64,000 nucleotides of DNA, taken from the NCBI GenBank assembly GCA_028288995.1, contig JAQGHF010000004.1:57204-121203 (forward strand), in the 5' to 3' direction. This document shows, one piece after another, positions 4,344-54,743 of this stretch. Numbering within the stretch: position 1 is the first letter of the stretch; every line of letters starts with the position of its first letter. A program made the position numbers and the translations under genes. The notes beneath the pieces were generated by a model. The model was not told the origin of the DNA. It was given only the letters and a program-made list of their open reading frames with translations, and made no database searches. The stretch comes from Candidatus Saccharimonadota bacterium. GTDB taxonomy: Bacteria; Patescibacteriota; Saccharimonadia; Saccharimonadales; Saccharimonadaceae.

Positions 4344-5522
4344 ATGCACATCGCCATCTTAGGTCGCCAGCCAGCCATCTCGATCGCCGAACTCGAACGA
4401 GTATACGGCGACGTTAGTTGGTTTTCTGAAATAAGCGCACTCGTTAATGCCGATTATATCGATATCACACGACTTGGTGGCAGCCAAAAAGCTGGTACCG
4501 TTGTTCTGCAAGTTCCTGGTCGCGATTGGCGAACAGCATCGATGAAAATCGTTCAGCACTACTCCGGGGCTTGGGCTCATAAAGAGGGCAAAATCACTCT
4601 TGGTATCAGTGCCTACGGATTTAATGAAGGTCCACGCGATATTCAAAAAACAGGTCTTGTCCTAAAAAGTAAACTAAAGTCGACTGGCACGAGCCTGCGC
4701 TTGATCCCAAACCAAGAATCTGTTCTTTCGACCGCAACGTCGCATCACAATAAACTTGGACTATCTGACAACAAAGTGGAACTTATCGTCGTGAAGGGTC
4801 AATCTGGCATCATCATTGCTGAAAGTACCGGTGCCCAAAACATTACCGCCCTCGCCGCTCGTGACCAAGGTCGTCCAAAACGCGATGCCTTCGTGGGTAT
4901 GCTTCCGCCAAAGCTTGCACAGATCATGATTAATCTTGCAGGACCACTCACTGCCGATCCAGACGCCGAACTTAAGCAGCCGCGTATCCTCGATCCATTC
5001 TGTGGCACCGGCGTTATTCTGCAAGAAGCCGGTCTGATGCGTTACGCTGTCTACGGCACTGACCTTGTAGAAAAAATGATCGACTTCTCTAGGACTAACC
5101 TCAAGTGGATTCAAGAAAAAGATAACCTCGACCTAAACGTTACACTACAGGTTGGTGACGCGATGACAACAACATGGGATATGCCTATCGACGCCGTTAT
5201 TGCCGAAGGCTACCTTGGACAACCGTTTAGTGCACCGCCATCGAACTCAAAACTTGTCGAAGTTCGTGGCAACACCAATCATATCCTTTCAGAGTTCTTA
5301 AAAAACCTGGCCAACCAAATTAAACCTGGCACGCCAGTCGTGCTTGCCGTTCCAGCTTGGAAAGATATCGACGGTCGCTTCACTCACCTGCCACTCATCA
5401 CAAAAGTTGACGAACTCGGCTACGAATACATCCAAATGCGCAACGTTCGCCCCGACCAACTACTTTATTTCCGCCCCGACCAAATCGTCGCCCGCGAAAT
5501 TCTTGTTCTCGTCAAGAAATAA
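4344..5522 (+). CDS. Trm11-like SAM-dependent (probably RNA) methyltransferase
   Basis: GMLPPKLAQIMINLA, ILDPFCGTGVILQEA, GTDL...M, EGYLG. Confidence 0.8.
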   Translation: MHIAILGRQPAISIAELERVYGDVSWFSEISALVNADYIDITRLGGSQKAGTVVLQVPGRDWRTASMKIVQHYSGAWAHKEGKITLGISAYGFNEGPRDIQKTGLVLKSKLKSTGTSLRLIPNQESVLSTATSHHNKLGLSDNKVELIVVKGQSGIIIAESTGAQNITALAARDQGRPKRDAFVGMLPPKLAQIMINLAGPLTADPDAELKQPRILDPFCGTGVILQEAGLMRYAVYGTDLVEKMIDFSRTNLKWIQEKDNLDLNVTLQVGDAMTTTWDMPIDAVIAEGYLGQPFSAPPSNSKLVEVRGNTNHILSEFLKNLANQIKPGTPVVLAVPAWKDIDGRFTHLPLITKVDELGYEYIQMRNVRPDQLLYFRPDQIVAREILVLVKK

Positions 5523-5589
5523 ACAGCTACAATTCAGTTAAGTATTACTACATCATATTTTTTGCTAGAGGTATATACTATAGTCCAGT

Positions 5590-6762
5590 ATGTTCAAGCC
5601 ATCACCGGAGTTTCAGAAACGCCTCGATAAAGACCGGGCGACCGACGAAATTGAAGCCAAAGCTATAAAGCACGAACAACGCCGCATGCGCACCTTAAAA
5701 GGTATCAGCAGCACGGCAATCTTCTTTACCTTTGCCAGCGTTCCGGTCGCTGAATACGCCGCGGATGTCCGTCACAACCAAGAGCTACAAGCAAACTCTA
5801 TTATTACCGTTGAAAAGTATGCCGATGCCCTACACCCCGAAAATCGCACACACGGAATCCTTAACATTGACGGATTCGGTTCTGAAAATGCAAATGTGCT
5901 CACCAAATACTTTGATCAAGCGATTCACAACGTTGAAGACGGTGTCGAATTAACCGTAGGCTACAATGATGCACCGCTAAAATACGAAAATATTGCCGAT
6001 AAAGCCATCGAGTTAGCGAATGAAGAAGGAATCACCTCCCTCTCGATTGTCGGCGAAAGTGGCGGTGGTCCGATCGCAATGGAAGTGCAAGAACGCATTC
6101 GAGAGAAGTCGAGCATCGCGGTCACCGCTATCTATCTCTTGTTTGCACCAAATGGCATCGGTGGGCTTCGCCAAGACCATCAAGATCAAATGAACTTTAT
6201 CGATGACGCGAAAGGCTTCCCTGGCATTACCTATTCCACGCCTATTCGCCTTGGTGCGGAAGTAGCTTTTCGATCTGGTGATTATACTGGGGGAACGTTT
6301 AGTCAAAATACAAACAACTTCTTCACGACTGTCCATGACGTCAGTAACTCGATTTCAGAACAGAAACTCCCAGGTACCTGGCTTATGGTCGACCAAGCGC
6401 TACAAATTGCAAATGCAGATCTCAAGACTCGCTTTGAGAATATGAAGAAAGCCCCTGCTTACGAAATGCGACCGACAATCGTATACATTGGTACTGATAA
6501 TGACCCTGTGGTTAATAACAAAAAATCTTCGGGTGAGATTAGTGACTATGCCAATGCTGCTCATATTCCCTATTTTTATCTCAATGTCTCTGGAGTCGTT
6601 CATGGACAACCACAATTCAATAACGATGCATATATAAAAGCTTTAGGTGGCGCAAAAACAGAAATCCAGGACAGTATTCATGCAGAGCAAGCCCGCGCCA
6701 GCCTTCACCGCATCACAAGCATAGCTCGCCCATACAATTCTGCCCAGACACCTCAAGGCTAA
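5590..6762 (+). CDS. Membrane-anchored protein, putative alpha/beta-hydrolase fold
   Basis: One N-terminal hydrophobic segment; GESGGG elbow; later DNDPVV and VVHGQ could supply Asp/His. Confidence 0.45.
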   Translation: MFKPSPEFQKRLDKDRATDEIEAKAIKHEQRRMRTLKGISSTAIFFTFASVPVAEYAADVRHNQELQANSIITVEKYADALHPENRTHGILNIDGFGSENANVLTKYFDQAIHNVEDGVELTVGYNDAPLKYENIADKAIELANEEGITSLSIVGESGGGPIAMEVQERIREKSSIAVTAIYLLFAPNGIGGLRQDHQDQMNFIDDAKGFPGITYSTPIRLGAEVAFRSGDYTGGTFSQNTNNFFTTVHDVSNSISEQKLPGTWLMVDQALQIANADLKTRFENMKKAPAYEMRPTIVYIGTDNDPVVNNKKSSGEISDYANAAHIPYFYLNVSGVVHGQPQFNNDAYIKALGGAKTEIQDSIHAEQARASLHRITSIARPYNSAQTPQG

Positions 6763-49770: not shown

Positions 49771-52700
49771 TTAGTTCTTTTGAAGGCTTAGTTGAAGCGT
49801 TTTGCCTTCAATTGTCAGCGTTTCAGCGTGCGCATATTCGCCGGTTGAGATTGCCCCCGCTAATGTTTCAGCCGCAATTGCTGATCCAAATTCTGTAATC
49901 GCTTGCGCCAGTTCTTCATCTTCAGTCGTGAGGCTGAGGTCAATATGATCGTCAACGTTCAAGCCCGCATTTTTACGAGCTGCCTGTGCGTAGCGAATGA
50001 TTTCACGAGCGTAGCCTTCGCGTTTTAATTCTGGCGTTATTTCAAGGTCGAGCGCTAACTCGTTACCCTGAATAACTTTTTTGACATTCAATTCTTCAAT
50101 CAGGACATCTTCGAAGTTTACGAACTCACCAAGTGTCGGCACCGTAATGCTCGCAAGCGGTTGGCGAATCTTCATCTTTGATGACGCACGAATGCTAAGT
50201 GCCTGATTGACGTACTCGCGAACGGTTTCCATGTCTTTGACGACTAACTCGTTGATGTGACCAACCTCTGGCCAATTTGTGAGGTGAACACTTTCTTCAC
50301 CGGTGAGATTACGGTACAGTTCTTCAGACAAGAATGGCACAAATGGAGCCAAAGCCTGGCTAAGACGAACTAGTACGTAGTGGAGCGTTTGGTAGGCATT
50401 ATTCTTGTCGGTATCGTCCTCCGATTTCCAGAAACGGCGACGTGAACGGCGAACAAACCAGTTACTCGCATCGTCGATGAATGGCAAGATCGGCTTCACG
50501 GCATTTGGAATATCGTAGCCGTCCATGTTCTTTTCAATCTCTTCGATAAGTTGGTGCAACCGACTGACGACCCATTGGTCGAGTGGGTTTGTGAGGTTTT
50601 CTGACGGGTCTTCGAGCTTGCCGTCTTGACTTGGAATGAACTCCCAGCCATCAACTTCAGCATACAGCGTAAAGAAATCGTACATGTTCCATACCATGCT
50701 GAGTTTTCGCGCGACGTCCCCCACTTCCCTGTCTTTCAGGGCAAAATCTTCACCGGAAAGCAGTGGGCTTGAAAGCAGTGTAAAGCGAAGGCTATCAGCA
50801 CTATACTGATCCATCAATAGGTTCGGATCGGTAAAGTTGCCCTTGCTCTTACTCATCTTGAGACCGTCGTTACCTGCGACATTTCCAGTAACAATCACGT
50901 TCTTAAATGCGTTGTGACCAAATAAACCGACGTTCACAGCGTGCACATAATAGAACCAAGCACGAACTTGACCAACGTACTCAACGATAAAGTCACCCGG
51001 GAAATTAGCTTCAAATTTTTCAACGTTTTCAAAAGGATAATGGAACTGCGCGAATGGCATTGAGCCAGACTCAAACCACCCATCGAGGACTTTGTCGATA
51101 CGTGTGTAGTGCACACCATCGAGGTCAAATTCGACGTCATCAACCCATGGGCGGTGATAATCTTCAAGTTCGACGCCCGAGAGTTCTTTTAGTTCAGCGT
51201 AGCTTCCGACCACTTTGACGAGTTCGTTGCCGTCTTTGTCAGTTCCCTTCCAGACTGGCATTGCCGTTGCCCAGAATCGGTCACGTGATAAGTTCCAGTC
51301 GGGTGCAGTTTCAATTGTTTTTTCAAAACGACCGTGTTTGATATGCGGTGGGAACCAATTAATGTGTTCAGCGTTCTCGTCGAGCATCTGCTGGCGCTGG
51401 TTATCAATATTAAAGAACCAACTTGGGTGCGCGCGGTACATCAAACGATGCCCAGTACGTGGATTGTGTGGATATTCGTGACGAATATAATCAATTTTCC
51501 ACACAACGCCGCGTTCTAATAAGGTCTTGGCGATAGTTTTGTTAATCGCCCACACTTCCTCACCAATCCAGTCACCTTCGGTGTACACACCGTATTCATC
51601 AAGCACATGAACGATTGGAATGTTGTTTTCTTTTGCGAAGATAAAGTCCTCTTCACCGTAAGCGGGTGCAAGGTGCACGATACCGGTACCAGATTCGGTC
51701 GTCACGTAATCGGCTGACCAGACTTTGTGGGCGTTTTCACCGCGATCTGCGAAGAGTGGCTCGTATTCGAGACCAACAAGCTCATCGCCCTTGAGGCTAC
51801 GCACAATTTCATATTCTAGTGGCTGATGTTTTTCGTCGGTAAATACTTTTGCAGCAAGATCTTTGGCGACAATCAATTGTTCATCACCAATCTTCACTTC
51901 GACATATTCCACTTCACTATTTACTGCGAGTGCTACGTTAGCGGGAAGCGTCCATGGCGTTGTTGTCCACGCAAGCAAAGAGCTACCAGAAAGGCTATCG
52001 TCAACGATGACACCCTCGGCTAATTGCTTTACTCGACTCTCAATTTGCGCACGTGCATCACGATTTTTCTCCCAGCTTTCACCGCGAGGATCGAGAACAT
52101 TCCACCATACGACGTTGTCAGCATTCAGCCAATCAGGAGTTTGCTCTTTTTCGGCAATATTTACGACAAGATCGTACTGCTGCAGCATGTCTTCAGTAAG
52201 TTTTTGACGTTTGTGACCTGTTACATCAACCCCTACCTCTTCCATAGTTGCCGTCGTTTTAATACTGCCTGGCTTCAATTCACCCAGTATGTCTTCGAGC
52301 GCAACGAGTGTCGTTGCCTCTTCCCAGTGCGCGTCAGGATTGACGCCCGCAGACTCGGCACTGGCTGTTTCTGTGAAATGATTGTAGAAACCCTGAGCAA
52401 AGTGCGAACGACCAGCATTTGAGTAACAGACGAAAAGCACTTTCGCCTCTTTCGACAAATTTGCGGGTTTAGAGTGGTTCTTTAACTTGAATTTCACATA
52501 CACGCTCGGATCCGTGACATTCACATACGCCCCAGCATCCATCGTCACTTCAGCTTTTGAAAGTGGTGTTGCCCACTGCGTGTCATACATAAGGACGCGT
52601 TCACCTTCGTAGATTTTGCCTTTTTCGTAGAGTTCTTTGAATGCCCACCAGACTGACTCCATATAGTCTTTGTCCATCGTGCGGTACGCGCCTTTAAAGT

Positions 52701-53130
52701 CGACCCAGCGACCAATGCGGTCGATTGTATCTTCCCAAAGCGCAGCGTTTGAGACCATACTTTCACGGGCAGTCGTAATGTAATCAGCAAGGCTAATCTT
52801 CTCACCCACGTCGTGACGACTGGTAATACCGAGTTTTTTCTCGATAAAGTTTTCAGCTGGTAGTCCGTGTGTATCCCAACCCCAGACACGCTCGACATGC
52901 TTCCCCTTCATCGTTTGGTAACGCGGCACGGCATCTTTCACAATCGAACTAAGGAGTGTTCCATGGTGCGGCACGCCGGTAATAAACGGAGGACCATCGT
53001 AAAAGACATACGAATTATCTATCGGTCGTTGATCGACTGATTTTTCGAAAGTTTTGTTATCTTTCCAGTAACGAATAATGTCTTTTTCGTATTCGAGTGC
53101 GCGGCGGCGTGTGCCTGATTTGAATTTCAC
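49771..53130 (-). CDS. ileS: Isoleucine--tRNA ligase type 2 with an inserted LMW-PTP/ArsC-like domain
   Basis: FYDGPPF, GWDTHGLP, WTTTPWTLPAN, WNLSRDRFW, GQVRAWFY, KMSKS; GTG start with SD AAGGAG. Confidence 0.96.
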   Translation of the reverse strand: MKFKSGTRRRALEYEKDIIRYWKDNKTFEKSVDQRPIDNSYVFYDGPPFITGVPHHGTLLSSIVKDAVPRYQTMKGKHVERVWGWDTHGLPAENFIEKKLGITSRHDVGEKISLADYITTARESMVSNAALWEDTIDRIGRWVDFKGAYRTMDKDYMESVWWAFKELYEKGKIYEGERVLMYDTQWATPLSKAEVTMDAGAYVNVTDPSVYVKFKLKNHSKPANLSKEAKVLFVCYSNAGRSHFAQGFYNHFTETASAESAGVNPDAHWEEATTLVALEDILGELKPGSIKTTATMEEVGVDVTGHKRQKLTEDMLQQYDLVVNIAEKEQTPDWLNADNVVWWNVLDPRGESWEKNRDARAQIESRVKQLAEGVIVDDSLSGSSLLAWTTTPWTLPANVALAVNSEVEYVEVKIGDEQLIVAKDLAAKVFTDEKHQPLEYEIVRSLKGDELVGLEYEPLFADRGENAHKVWSADYVTTESGTGIVHLAPAYGEEDFIFAKENNIPIVHVLDEYGVYTEGDWIGEEVWAINKTIAKTLLERGVVWKIDYIRHEYPHNPRTGHRLMYRAHPSWFFNIDNQRQQMLDENAEHINWFPPHIKHGRFEKTIETAPDWNLSRDRFWATAMPVWKGTDKDGNELVKVVGSYAELKELSGVELEDYHRPWVDDVEFDLDGVHYTRIDKVLDGWFESGSMPFAQFHYPFENVEKFEANFPGDFIVEYVGQVRAWFYYVHAVNVGLFGHNAFKNVIVTGNVAGNDGLKMSKSKGNFTDPNLLMDQYSADSLRFTLLSSPLLSGEDFALKDREVGDVARKLSMVWNMYDFFTLYAEVDGWEFIPSQDGKLEDPSENLTNPLDQWVVSRLHQLIEEIEKNMDGYDIPNAVKPILPFIDDASNWFVRRSRRRFWKSEDDTDKNNAYQTLHYVLVRLSQALAPFVPFLSEELYRNLTGEESVHLTNWPEVGHINELVVKDMETVREYVNQALSIRASSKMKIRQPLASITVPTLGEFVNFEDVLIEELNVKKVIQGNELALDLEITPELKREGYAREIIRYAQAARKNAGLNVDDHIDLSLTTEDEELAQAITEFGSAIAAETLAGAISTGEYAHAETLTIEGKTLQLSLQKN

Positions 53131-53400: not shown

Positions 53401-54024
53401 CTATGCAAACAGCGCTTGACCGAACTTCAGGAAGACCAGGATAACCATCAACGCGATCCATGCCAGCACGATCATTTGGTGGAAGCCACTTTTGAGGAAA
53501 TACTGCACTTTTGTGTTCAGCGTATCCTTCAATTTGAAGGTGTTTTCTTTCAAGTTAAAGTGAAGATAACTCGCAAGCATGACGGTCATCGACGTCGTCA
53601 CAACCAAGCACCATGGACACAACACTTGGATGACGTACACACTTTGGAAGAAGAGCCAGTAAGAAAACAGGAAGCCGAGAAATAGTGCAATAATTGATGA
53701 GATCAAGAACCAACGAGGCAACTTTGTCCCTGAAAGCCCCAGCACGGCGATGGTGATAAGCACAGGAAATGCTATCAGACCGATAATCATATTCGGGAAG
53801 CCAAAGACGTGTGATTGCCAGGTTTCCATGACCTTAGAACAGTTCAGTACGATATTGATGCTGCACGAAAGCACTGCGTTTGGATCTTGTAAAACCTTAA
53901 ACTTATCAAGCGTCAACACAAATGCCGCAATCAGTGCCGCAATACCCCCAAGTAGCATGAAGCCAAATGTAACGTAACGATAACCCTTTCCGTTTGCACC
54001 TTTTTTGAATAATTTATTGAACAT
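53401..54024 (-). CDS. Vitamin K epoxide reductase (VKOR) family disulfide-formation protein
   Basis: SCSINIVLNCSKV, FGFPN, CPWC. Confidence 0.93.
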   Translation of the reverse strand: MFNKLFKKGANGKGYRYVTFGFMLLGGIAALIAAFVLTLDKFKVLQDPNAVLSCSINIVLNCSKVMETWQSHVFGFPNMIIGLIAFPVLITIAVLGLSGTKLPRWFLISSIIALFLGFLFSYWLFFQSVYVIQVLCPWCLVVTTSMTVMLASYLHFNLKENTFKLKDTLNTKVQYFLKSGFHQMIVLAWIALMVILVFLKFGQALFA

Positions 54025-54274
54025 AATAGCTTACCTCACTTATCGTTGGGAGCGGCAGTCCAGCCCACGTATTTTGCATCACTCCTTCATCAGAGATCGC
54101 AATGAGCATCGGAAGTTCCATAATGTCGTAGGTCTGTGTAAAATCGATGCCAACAGGAGATTCGGGGTCCACCGTCTCTAGGTCATGTCCGGTTTGGCGC
54201 TTAAAATCGGCAATATAATCAATCACCTGACGTGCGTAATCGGTCTGCTCTTTGTAGACCACTACCACGCGCAT
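54014..54274 (-). CDS. Small thioredoxin-like-fold protein without CxxC
   Basis: Start moved to ATG 54274 (MRVVVVYK...YDIMELP), just after the nrdR stop; the longer track ORF overlaps nrdR. Confidence 0.6.
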   Translation of the reverse strand: MRVVVVYKEQTDYARQVIDYIADFKRQTGHDLETVDPESPVGIDFTQTYDIMELPMLIAISDEGVMQNTWAGLPLPTISEVSYYVQ

Positions 54275-54278
54275 AAAC

Positions 54279-54743
54279 TTAGGCAGCCTTCTTTTGTTCG
54301 TTCGCTTGCTTTCGTTGTTCGAGGATTTTGACGAAGTCGTCAAGTGTTTTAAAGTCCTGGTAGACGCTTGCGAAACGGACATACGCAACTTCATTTCGAA
54401 GCGCGAGCTCATCAAGTACTTTGTCGCCAATTTGCTTTGAGGTAATTTCGTTTTCGCCCAGTGCGTACAGTCCATCTTCGATTTCGTCGATCATTTCTTC
54501 TACTTCAACTTCCGAGTCAAAGAATTTTCCGACCGATCGTTTTACCGCAATCGAAAGTTTGTCGCGATCAAATAATGTGCGCGAACCGTTCTTTTTAATA
54601 ACGGCGAGGTTTGGCTTTTCAATACGCTCATAGGTGGTAAACCGTTTACCATCTGGTGATTCACGACGACGACGAATAGTGACACCATCACTGACTTCGC
54701 GTGATTCGATAACCCGACTGTCACCAATGTTTAATTGTGCCAC
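54279..54743 (-). CDS. nrdR: Transcriptional repressor NrdR lacking Zn-ribbon cysteines
   Basis: RVIESR, IRRRRE, RFTTYER, ATP-cone, VAYVRFASVY. Confidence 0.93.
   Translation of the reverse strand: MAQLNIGDSRVIESREVSDGVTIRRRRESPDGKRFTTYERIEKPNLAVIKKNGSRTLFDRDKLSIAVKRSVGKFFDSEVEVEEMIDEIEDGLYALGENEITSKQIGDKVLDELALRNEVAYVRFASVYQDFKTLDDFVKILEQRKQANEQKKAA

Follow-up and report, generated by a model that had tools for sequence, protein, structure and literature searches.

We have analyzed an isoleucyl-tRNA synthetase (IleRS) gene, ileS, that carries a complete phosphatase-type domain inside the region coding for its catalytic body. The gene is located in a stretch of 64,000 nucleotides (from here on, the window) of contig JAQGHF010000004.1, assembly GCA_028288995.1 of a Candidatus Saccharimonadota bacterium, and the source genome is that of a member of the Saccharibacteria (TM7) related to Ca. 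Microsaccharimonas. The inserted segment is a member of the low molecular weight phosphatase (LMWP) superfamily, on its arsenate reductase (ArsC)-like side, with a single Cys and outside all the characterized subfamilies. On balance we consider it probable that this insert is an autonomous single-Cys phosphohydrolase carried by an essential gene, and not a part of the aminoacylation or editing machinery.

The limits of the insert were established by alignment to homologues that are devoid of it. At the insert point the nearest solved homologue, the IleRS2 of Priestia megaterium (PDB 8c8u, aligned over the whole host length with 656 bits), has a connection of about 3 residues, between ...VKFKVKNRD and FLGWTTTPWT, against the 168 residues found in the window. 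The insertion is in frame and directly precedes the WTTTPWT start of CP1, in a surface loop where the CP1 editing domain has its N-terminal hinge, just where the initial annotation had located it in an IleRS of the candidate phyla radiation. The components of the insert, with amino acid (aa) numbers referring to the IleRS protein, were the following:

51979..52482, minus strand: complete insert, 168 aa (aa 217-384), which the closest homologues of this IleRS lack.
52444..52482, minus strand: variable Lys-rich N-terminal linker, KNHSKPANLSKEA, aa 217-229.
52018..52440, minus strand: LMWPc (PF01451) domain, aa 231-371, by full-length profile match and modelled fold.
52405..52428, minus strand: P-loop CYSNAGRS (C235, N238, R241 and S242), a CX5R(S) motif with its catalytic Cys and Arg.
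52126..52140, minus strand: TPDWL, aa 331-335, a motif characteristic of the Saccharibacteria clade (clade form TPxWL).
52075..52092, minus strand: DPRGES, aa 347-352, the Asp-Pro general-acid loop (D347-P348).
51979..52023, minus strand: C-terminal tail, LAEGVIVDDSLSGSS, aa 370-384, with a conserved [IV]DD.

The same [IV]DD tail was found in free-standing homologues, so that it has to be considered part of the domain rather than a mere linker. The match to LMWPc covered the whole profile (positions 1-144 of 144) with 38.5 bits against a gathering cut-off of 23.2 (E 1.7e-9), and its coordinates agree with the interval 52005-52450 originally proposed for the domain. The peptides on which that proposal was based are all in place: KVLFVCYSNAGRSHFAQGF, around the P-loop, corresponds to aa 230-248, AESAGV to aa 258-263, QKLTEDMLQQYDLVV to aa 309-323 and WNVLDP to aa 343-348, and the insert is bordered by DPSVYVKFKL (aa 207-216) on the N-terminal side. 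When the insert was modelled alone with AlphaFold2 (AF2, nine homologues) the mean pLDDT was 86.8, and the model had the fold of the low molecular weight protein tyrosine phosphatases (LMW-PTP) and ArsCs. With it Foldseek retrieved, at TM values of 0.6-0.8 and always with probability 1.00, the pI258 ArsC, Wzb, YwlE and the ArsCs of A. fulgidus and C. glutamicum (ArsC2). A profile score above the gathering threshold, a C-X5-R-(S/T) P-loop accompanied by an Asp general acid and an alpha/beta fold place the insert in the LMWPc superfamily, and the presence of an intact LMW-PTP/ArsC-like domain within IleRS, including its CX5R-S P-loop (C235, R241, S242) and Asp-Pro general acid, is thus confirmed. 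In the model of the full-length protein, confidence was good for the LMWPc, CP1 and anticodon-binding parts; the Rossmann catalytic core (aa 44-200 and 680-770) stayed under a pLDDT of 50.

The reality of the junctions could be verified with a contig from an independent assembly (public soil-metagenome run X1; 4721 nt, depth 13.2). It spans positions 51500-53000 of the window with 0 mismatches and 0 gaps, indicating that both junctions of the insert are real.

We have aligned 57 Saccharibacteria-type domain sequences, either embedded or free, that had identities of 33-70%. The residues C235, N238, R241 and S242 were invariant in the 55 domains that cover the P-loop (two of the 57 are truncated there), and D347 in all 57. 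R308, Y319, W334, N339 and W343 were also invariant. A smaller alignment of 18 sequences (33-63% identity to the domain of the window) gave the same invariant residues, and the free-standing orthologues have kept the same catalytic set. The Nei-Gojobori dN/dS ratios (nonsynonymous over synonymous changes) of the domain were between 0.08 and 0.27 for pairs with unsaturated dS, while those of the 200 IleRS codons located upstream of it were between 0.003 and 0.09. These values indicate that the domain is under purifying selection, looser than that acting on the synthetase core. Phosphatase activity is what the invariant residues and the selection would predict, and in this indirect manner the original suggestion of a catalytically competent phosphatase gains support from sequence comparison.

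To know how widespread the arrangement is, we scanned one genome per GTDB species and recovered 70 loci, onto which three parts of the window protein were mapped and whose open reading frames (ORFs) were read. The count of embedded copies rests on this genome scan; the profile searches favored short proteins, and a word-indexed protein database queried with the insert alone gave 2 matches only and missed the embedded copies. LMWPc was found in frame within ileS in 41 Saccharibacteria species genomes, 36 of them at the site of the window and 5 at three other loops, and the architectures were confirmed by Pfam. The sites were:

Site 1, before CP1 as in the window: 36 species (L008-L039, L041, L046, L047, L049).
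Site 2, in the hairpin between HRPWVD and WFESGS: 2 species (L045, L048).
Site 3, about 20 residues before KMSKS: 2 species (L040, L043).
Site 4, inside CP1: 1 species (L044).

No genome had two copies, each of the approximately 47 Saccharibacteria assemblies of the scan appearing only once. The domain exists also as a free gene. In L001 and L002 it is located between VKOR and ileS, with its stop overlapping the start codon of an ileS that is insert-less. In five out of five long contigs, from different lineages, it was found between atpA and atpG, within the F1Fo ATP-synthase operon (this operon is not within the 64-kb window). Other free copies adjoin an ABC transporter or are flanked by a GDSL lipase on one side and a NUDIX gene on the other. 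The copy in this last context (L084:615-2175) is the free LMWPc nearest to the embedded copies of the oral type. A conserved LMWPc-NUDIX pair was considered and dropped, since the neighboring NUDIX genes of the different contexts were not orthologous and their similarity was limited to the Nudix box.

LMWPc is not the only guest of these synthetases. Related IleRSs host unrelated enzymes such as NUDIX, Ser_hydrolase, GNAT and His_Phos_1. The most crowded example was the 1747 aa IleRS of L012 (4287-9527, plus strand), in which LMWPc, NUDIX and a PF06821 serine hydrolase come consecutively at site 1 and a second hydrolase-like module is present in CP1. In L044 (398-5104, plus strand; 1569 aa) LMWPc and an alpha/beta hydrolase are located in CP1, and a His_Phos_1 (PF00300, 152 bits) precedes the anticodon-binding domain. 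The IleRS of L041 (4311-6929, plus strand) has a GNAT in CP1, and in L006 a separate GNAT gene (5457-6011) overlaps the start of ileS. Site 1 accepts unrelated short or low-complexity sequences as well. The atp operons that contain the free LMWPc show a comparable accretion, with NUDIX, NYN, methyltransferase and FMN_red (flavodoxin-like) genes and ORFs of unknown nature, connected by overlapping start and stop codons. The operons interrupted by such small unrelated genes were those of L042 (1398-8687), L079, L081, L082 and L083. Among the oral-type IleRSs, which are 1300-1760 aa long (L009-L030, L047), NUDIX and/or PF06821 domains follow the LMWPc of site 1, and some have a second alpha/beta-hydrolase-like module inside CP1. 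In the IleRSs with LMWPc at sites 2 or 3 (L040:2964-6752, L043:2871-6722, L048:3168-6959) site 1 is filled by 40-60 residues of Ser/Pro-rich low-complexity sequence.

The interpretation that we favor is built on these contexts. The Saccharibacteria would place small accessory enzymes in essential units that are constitutively expressed. In ileS they would be accommodated as in-frame inserts, and in the atp operon or immediately before ileS as coupled ORFs; a guest gene lodged in this way needs no promoter of its own. What ties the enzyme to IleRS would in that case be expression and dosage rather than chemistry. As to its own reaction, C235 would act as the nucleophile, the phosphate would be bound by the P-loop together with R241, and D347 would be the general acid. 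In formal terms such an autonomous enzyme might also be an arsenate reductase of the single-Cys kind. The presence of the domain at three other distant loops of IleRS, and free in the atp operon, suggests that the position before CP1 is a permissive loop and not a mechanistic placement. The same facts give no support to the functional connection with RNA binding or with the editing site that the initial annotation had implied. Besides, the existence of insert-less IleRSs that are 92% identical indicates that the synthetase has no need of the insert.

The history of the insert appears to be complex. The IleRS core of the window is 92.5% identical to those of the insert-less sequences P0001, where the connection is KNED-YS, and P0002, and only 71-76% identical to those of the insert-bearing P0016, P0052, P0072, P0091, P0092 and P0113, whose inserts are 48-64% identical to the one in the window. 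In a neighbor-joining tree of the core (insert columns removed) the window was placed within a crown clade of 67 sequences, all insert-less, and the insert-bearing lineages were basal. The closest insert-bearing relative that we found, the partial L033, is 87% identical in the N-terminal part and 72% in the insert. In the neighbor-joining tree of the domain the embedded copies (sites 1-4) and the free copies interleave, and the copies of site 2 group as sisters with those of site 3, their hosts being closely related. Taken from trees that carry no support values, this pattern would need several independent insertions or relocations and, besides them, recombination of insert-bearing with insert-less ileS alleles or else a large number of precise losses. 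The patchiness among close relatives would be best explained by recombination of ileS alleles or by repeated loss, probably by recombination. When L031 and L035 were compared, the dS was 2.3 in the domain and 0.26 in the flank, and mosaics of this kind suggest recombination within the gene. The sliding nucleotide identity between the window and the insert-less L005 gave no decisive footprint of recombination: it dropped only slightly, past the insert, where CP1 begins and is variable. The difference in dS between LMWPc and the adjacent N-terminal segment of IleRS was about ten-fold and was seen in both directions (L031/L035 and L034/L039).

Some points weigh against an autonomous passenger enzyme. 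No other host comes near IleRS in frequency, with its 41 species, its four sites and, in addition, the position upstream of the gene. This is not what one would obviously expect of a random hitch-hiker, and the preference could reflect a functional tie to IleRS or tRNA-Ile. The scan patterns came from copies embedded in IleRS, so the census is biased. The invariant catalytic residues would fit also with non-hydrolytic phosphate binding. The neighbor-joining trees, as said, lack support values, and the full-length AF2 model (75-sequence alignment, pTM 0.47) is unusable for placing the P-loop with respect to the synthetic and editing sites.

The main alternative is that the domain is coupled to IleRS in cis, either removing a 3' phosphate or pyrophosphate from tRNA-Ile, hydrolyzing an acyl-phosphate, an adenylate-like compound or an inhibitor, or dephosphorylating IleRS. 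Its recurrent association with ileS, which it has entered independently at four sites and which in other genomes it precedes as a translationally coupled gene, would be in line with such a coupling, as would the conservation of the catalytic residues; in the window, moreover, the insert is at the CP1 hinge, where the 3' end of the tRNA shuttles. However, long stretches of the IleRS sequence separate the four sites, which speaks against a single fixed geometry; the free copies of the atp operon are far from ileS in all five long contigs; IleRSs with 92% identity do without the insert; and enzymes unrelated to LMWPc have been inserted in the same synthetase. We also know of no LMWP-family enzyme that acts on tRNA. 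All in all, we find this coupling unlikely. A more specific proposal, for which we have rather little confidence, is that of a built-in repair or protection of isoleucylation, in which the domain, tethered to IleRS or provided by the coupled gene upstream, would remove a phosphate-type block from the acceptor end of tRNA-Ile or from IleRS, or would destroy a phosphorylated IleRS inhibitor produced by the actinobacterial hosts of the Saccharibacteria. Such a role would explain the entry of the domain into IleRS at four loops.

A second alternative, that the insert is an arsenate reductase fortuitously fused to IleRS, comes from its nearest characterized relatives, which are ArsCs both by sequence and by fold (2l17/2l19, 1ljl/1jf8 and 3rh0). 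The nearest solved proteins by sequence were actually the glutaredoxin-coupled ArsC of Synechocystis (2l17/2l19) and other ArsCs, and among more distant relatives there are fusions with ArsR or GNAT, like those of ars loci. With this branch (Synechocystis 2l17, S. aureus pI258 1ljl/1jf8, A. fulgidus 1y1l, C. glutamicum 3rh0) the insert shares the fold, an Asn-containing CX5R(S) P-loop and the Asp-Pro loop. It differs in being longer (168 aa), in having its own TPDWL and [IV]DD motifs and in being nested in IleRS and not in an ars locus. It contains exactly one Cys, in agreement with the earlier remark that the additional cysteines of the thioredoxin-coupled enzymes are not evident. The three-cysteine relay of the latter (Cys10, Cys82 and Cys89) is therefore absent, and in the alignment to 2l17 so are Cys80 and Cys82 of the glutaredoxin-coupled type (Cys8/Cys80/Cys82). 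The region that bears the resolving cysteines in both types is replaced by the conserved TPDWL, in a loop that reads NIAEKEQTPDWL. The curated NCBIfam models gave only 37-48 bits against cut-offs of 157-215, namely 37.4 versus 174.3 and 44.2 versus 215 bits for the thioredoxin-coupled pI258 type (TIGR02691 and NF010053) and 48.1 versus 157.6 bits for the hybrid glutaredoxin-coupled type of Synechocystis (TIGR02689, ars_reduc_gluta). The mycothiol-dependent ArsC1/2 of C. glutamicum agree with the insert in the single Cys, and the fold matches 3rh0. A single-Cys ArsC needs mycothiol and mycoredoxin or a similar thiol, which Saccharibacteria are not known to make. Neither was any ars gene found among the neighbors examined (two genes at each side of ileS and the Pfam-annotated genes of related loci), which included VKOR, NrdR, FtsZ, VIT1 and atp genes. 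An ordinary arsenate reductase role appears then quite unlikely.

The classical LMW-PTPs and YwlE (Wzb 7dhd/2wmy, YwlE 4kk3) share with the insert the fold and the Cys/Arg/Asp catalytic set, but they differ from it by the family models: Wzb/Etp (NF007520 and NF008486) gave 15.5 and 19.8 bits, far below their cut-offs of 243 and 247. The second Cys of their P-loop is replaced by G240, and the tyrosines of DPYY by DPRGES. In YwlE a Thr at position C+4 of the P-loop sets the specificity for phospho-Arg; here this position is occupied by Ala239, and by A, G, S, I or V in the relatives. The failure of every curated subfamily model leaves the insert with no characterized subfamily.

That the domain might be a non-catalytic module (a pseudo-enzyme, a spacer or a phosphate- or RNA-binding domain) kept for structural reasons would accord with a dN/dS above that of the IleRS core and with a site that tolerates unrelated filler sequence. 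Yet the Cys nucleophile, the Asn, Arg and Ser of the P-loop and the Asp general acid are invariant wherever the sequences cover them, also in the free-standing orthologues, and the dN/dS is well below 1, making this explanation very improbable. Finally, an artefact (chimeric assembly or frameshift), an intein or another self-splicing or mobile element, which the patchy distribution among close relatives might have suggested, can practically be dismissed given the independent contig across both junctions, the continuous ORF, the same architecture in about 40 metagenome-assembled genomes from unrelated studies, the lack of any Hint, intein or endonuclease Pfam match and junctions (KL|KNHS and SGSS|LLAW) without the Cys/Ser...His-Asn-Cys/Ser/Thr signature.

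Aminoacyl-tRNA synthetases with extra domains are already known. For a bacterial IleRS whose catalytic body encloses a complete enzyme of the Cys-phosphatase or ArsC type, a guest from the LMWP superfamily, our literature search found no description. A comparable case among the curated families is NF040702 ('isoleucine--tRNA ligase, N-acetyltransferase domain-containing'; ileS_w_GNAT), likewise an IleRS with an unrelated enzyme domain. Here the guest is LMWPc and is nested in the catalytic body instead of appended, and the window protein scored 274.6 bits with this model, against a cut-off of 1999. The case is of relevance for annotation too: at NCBI such an IleRS is named just 'class I tRNA ligase family protein', and public annotation uses either this name or 'isoleucine--tRNA ligase'. 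More than in the single case, the interest resides in the pattern of multiple sites and contexts and in the wider accretion of domains in the saccharibacterial IleRS. If the guests are autonomous, nature would offer here a clear case of ultra-small genomes that use essential genes as expression platforms. It would also show a class I synthetase that tolerates domain insertion at defined loops, a property useful for protein engineering. If the domain acts instead on IleRS or tRNA-Ile, it would represent a new kind of quality-control or anti-toxin function.

The host gene is otherwise a regular type-2 (eukaryote-like) ileS. Its product scored 774.9 bits with the IleRS equivalog TIGR00392 (cut-off 621.4) and, besides LMWPc, had Pfam matches to tRNA-synt_1, Anticodon_1 and DUF5915. 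The sequence AAAGGAG is found 7 nt upstream of the GTG start. The host signatures are intact, i.e. HHGT at aa 55-58, KMSKS at aa 758-762 and the Thr-rich editing motif WTTTPWT at aa 388-394, and are common to the type-2 IleRS 8c8u and to the T. thermophilus enzyme (1ile). The features of the host gene are:

49771..53130, minus strand: ileS, a continuous ORF of 1119 aa with GTG start.
52483..53130, minus strand: N-terminal part of IleRS, aa 1-216, a Rossmann half that ends in the strand DPSVYVKFKL.
52957-52968: HIGH-type motif HHGT.
51937..51978, minus strand: LLAWTTTPWTLPAN, aa 385-398, where the IleRS sequence restarts with the first strand of CP1 and its Thr-rich editing motif.
50845..50859, minus strand: KMSKS motif, aa 758-762, catalytic signature of the host.

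The gene order FtsZ-NrdR-small ORF-VKOR-ileS-VIT1 is common to the window and its relatives. In the window, a 153-aa ORF (54014-54475, minus strand) overlaps the NrdR ORF (54279-54743, minus strand) by about 200 nt. The gene located between NrdR and VKOR in the relatives has just 85-86 aa and no Pfam hit, and for this reason the true start of the 153-aa ORF is probably internal.

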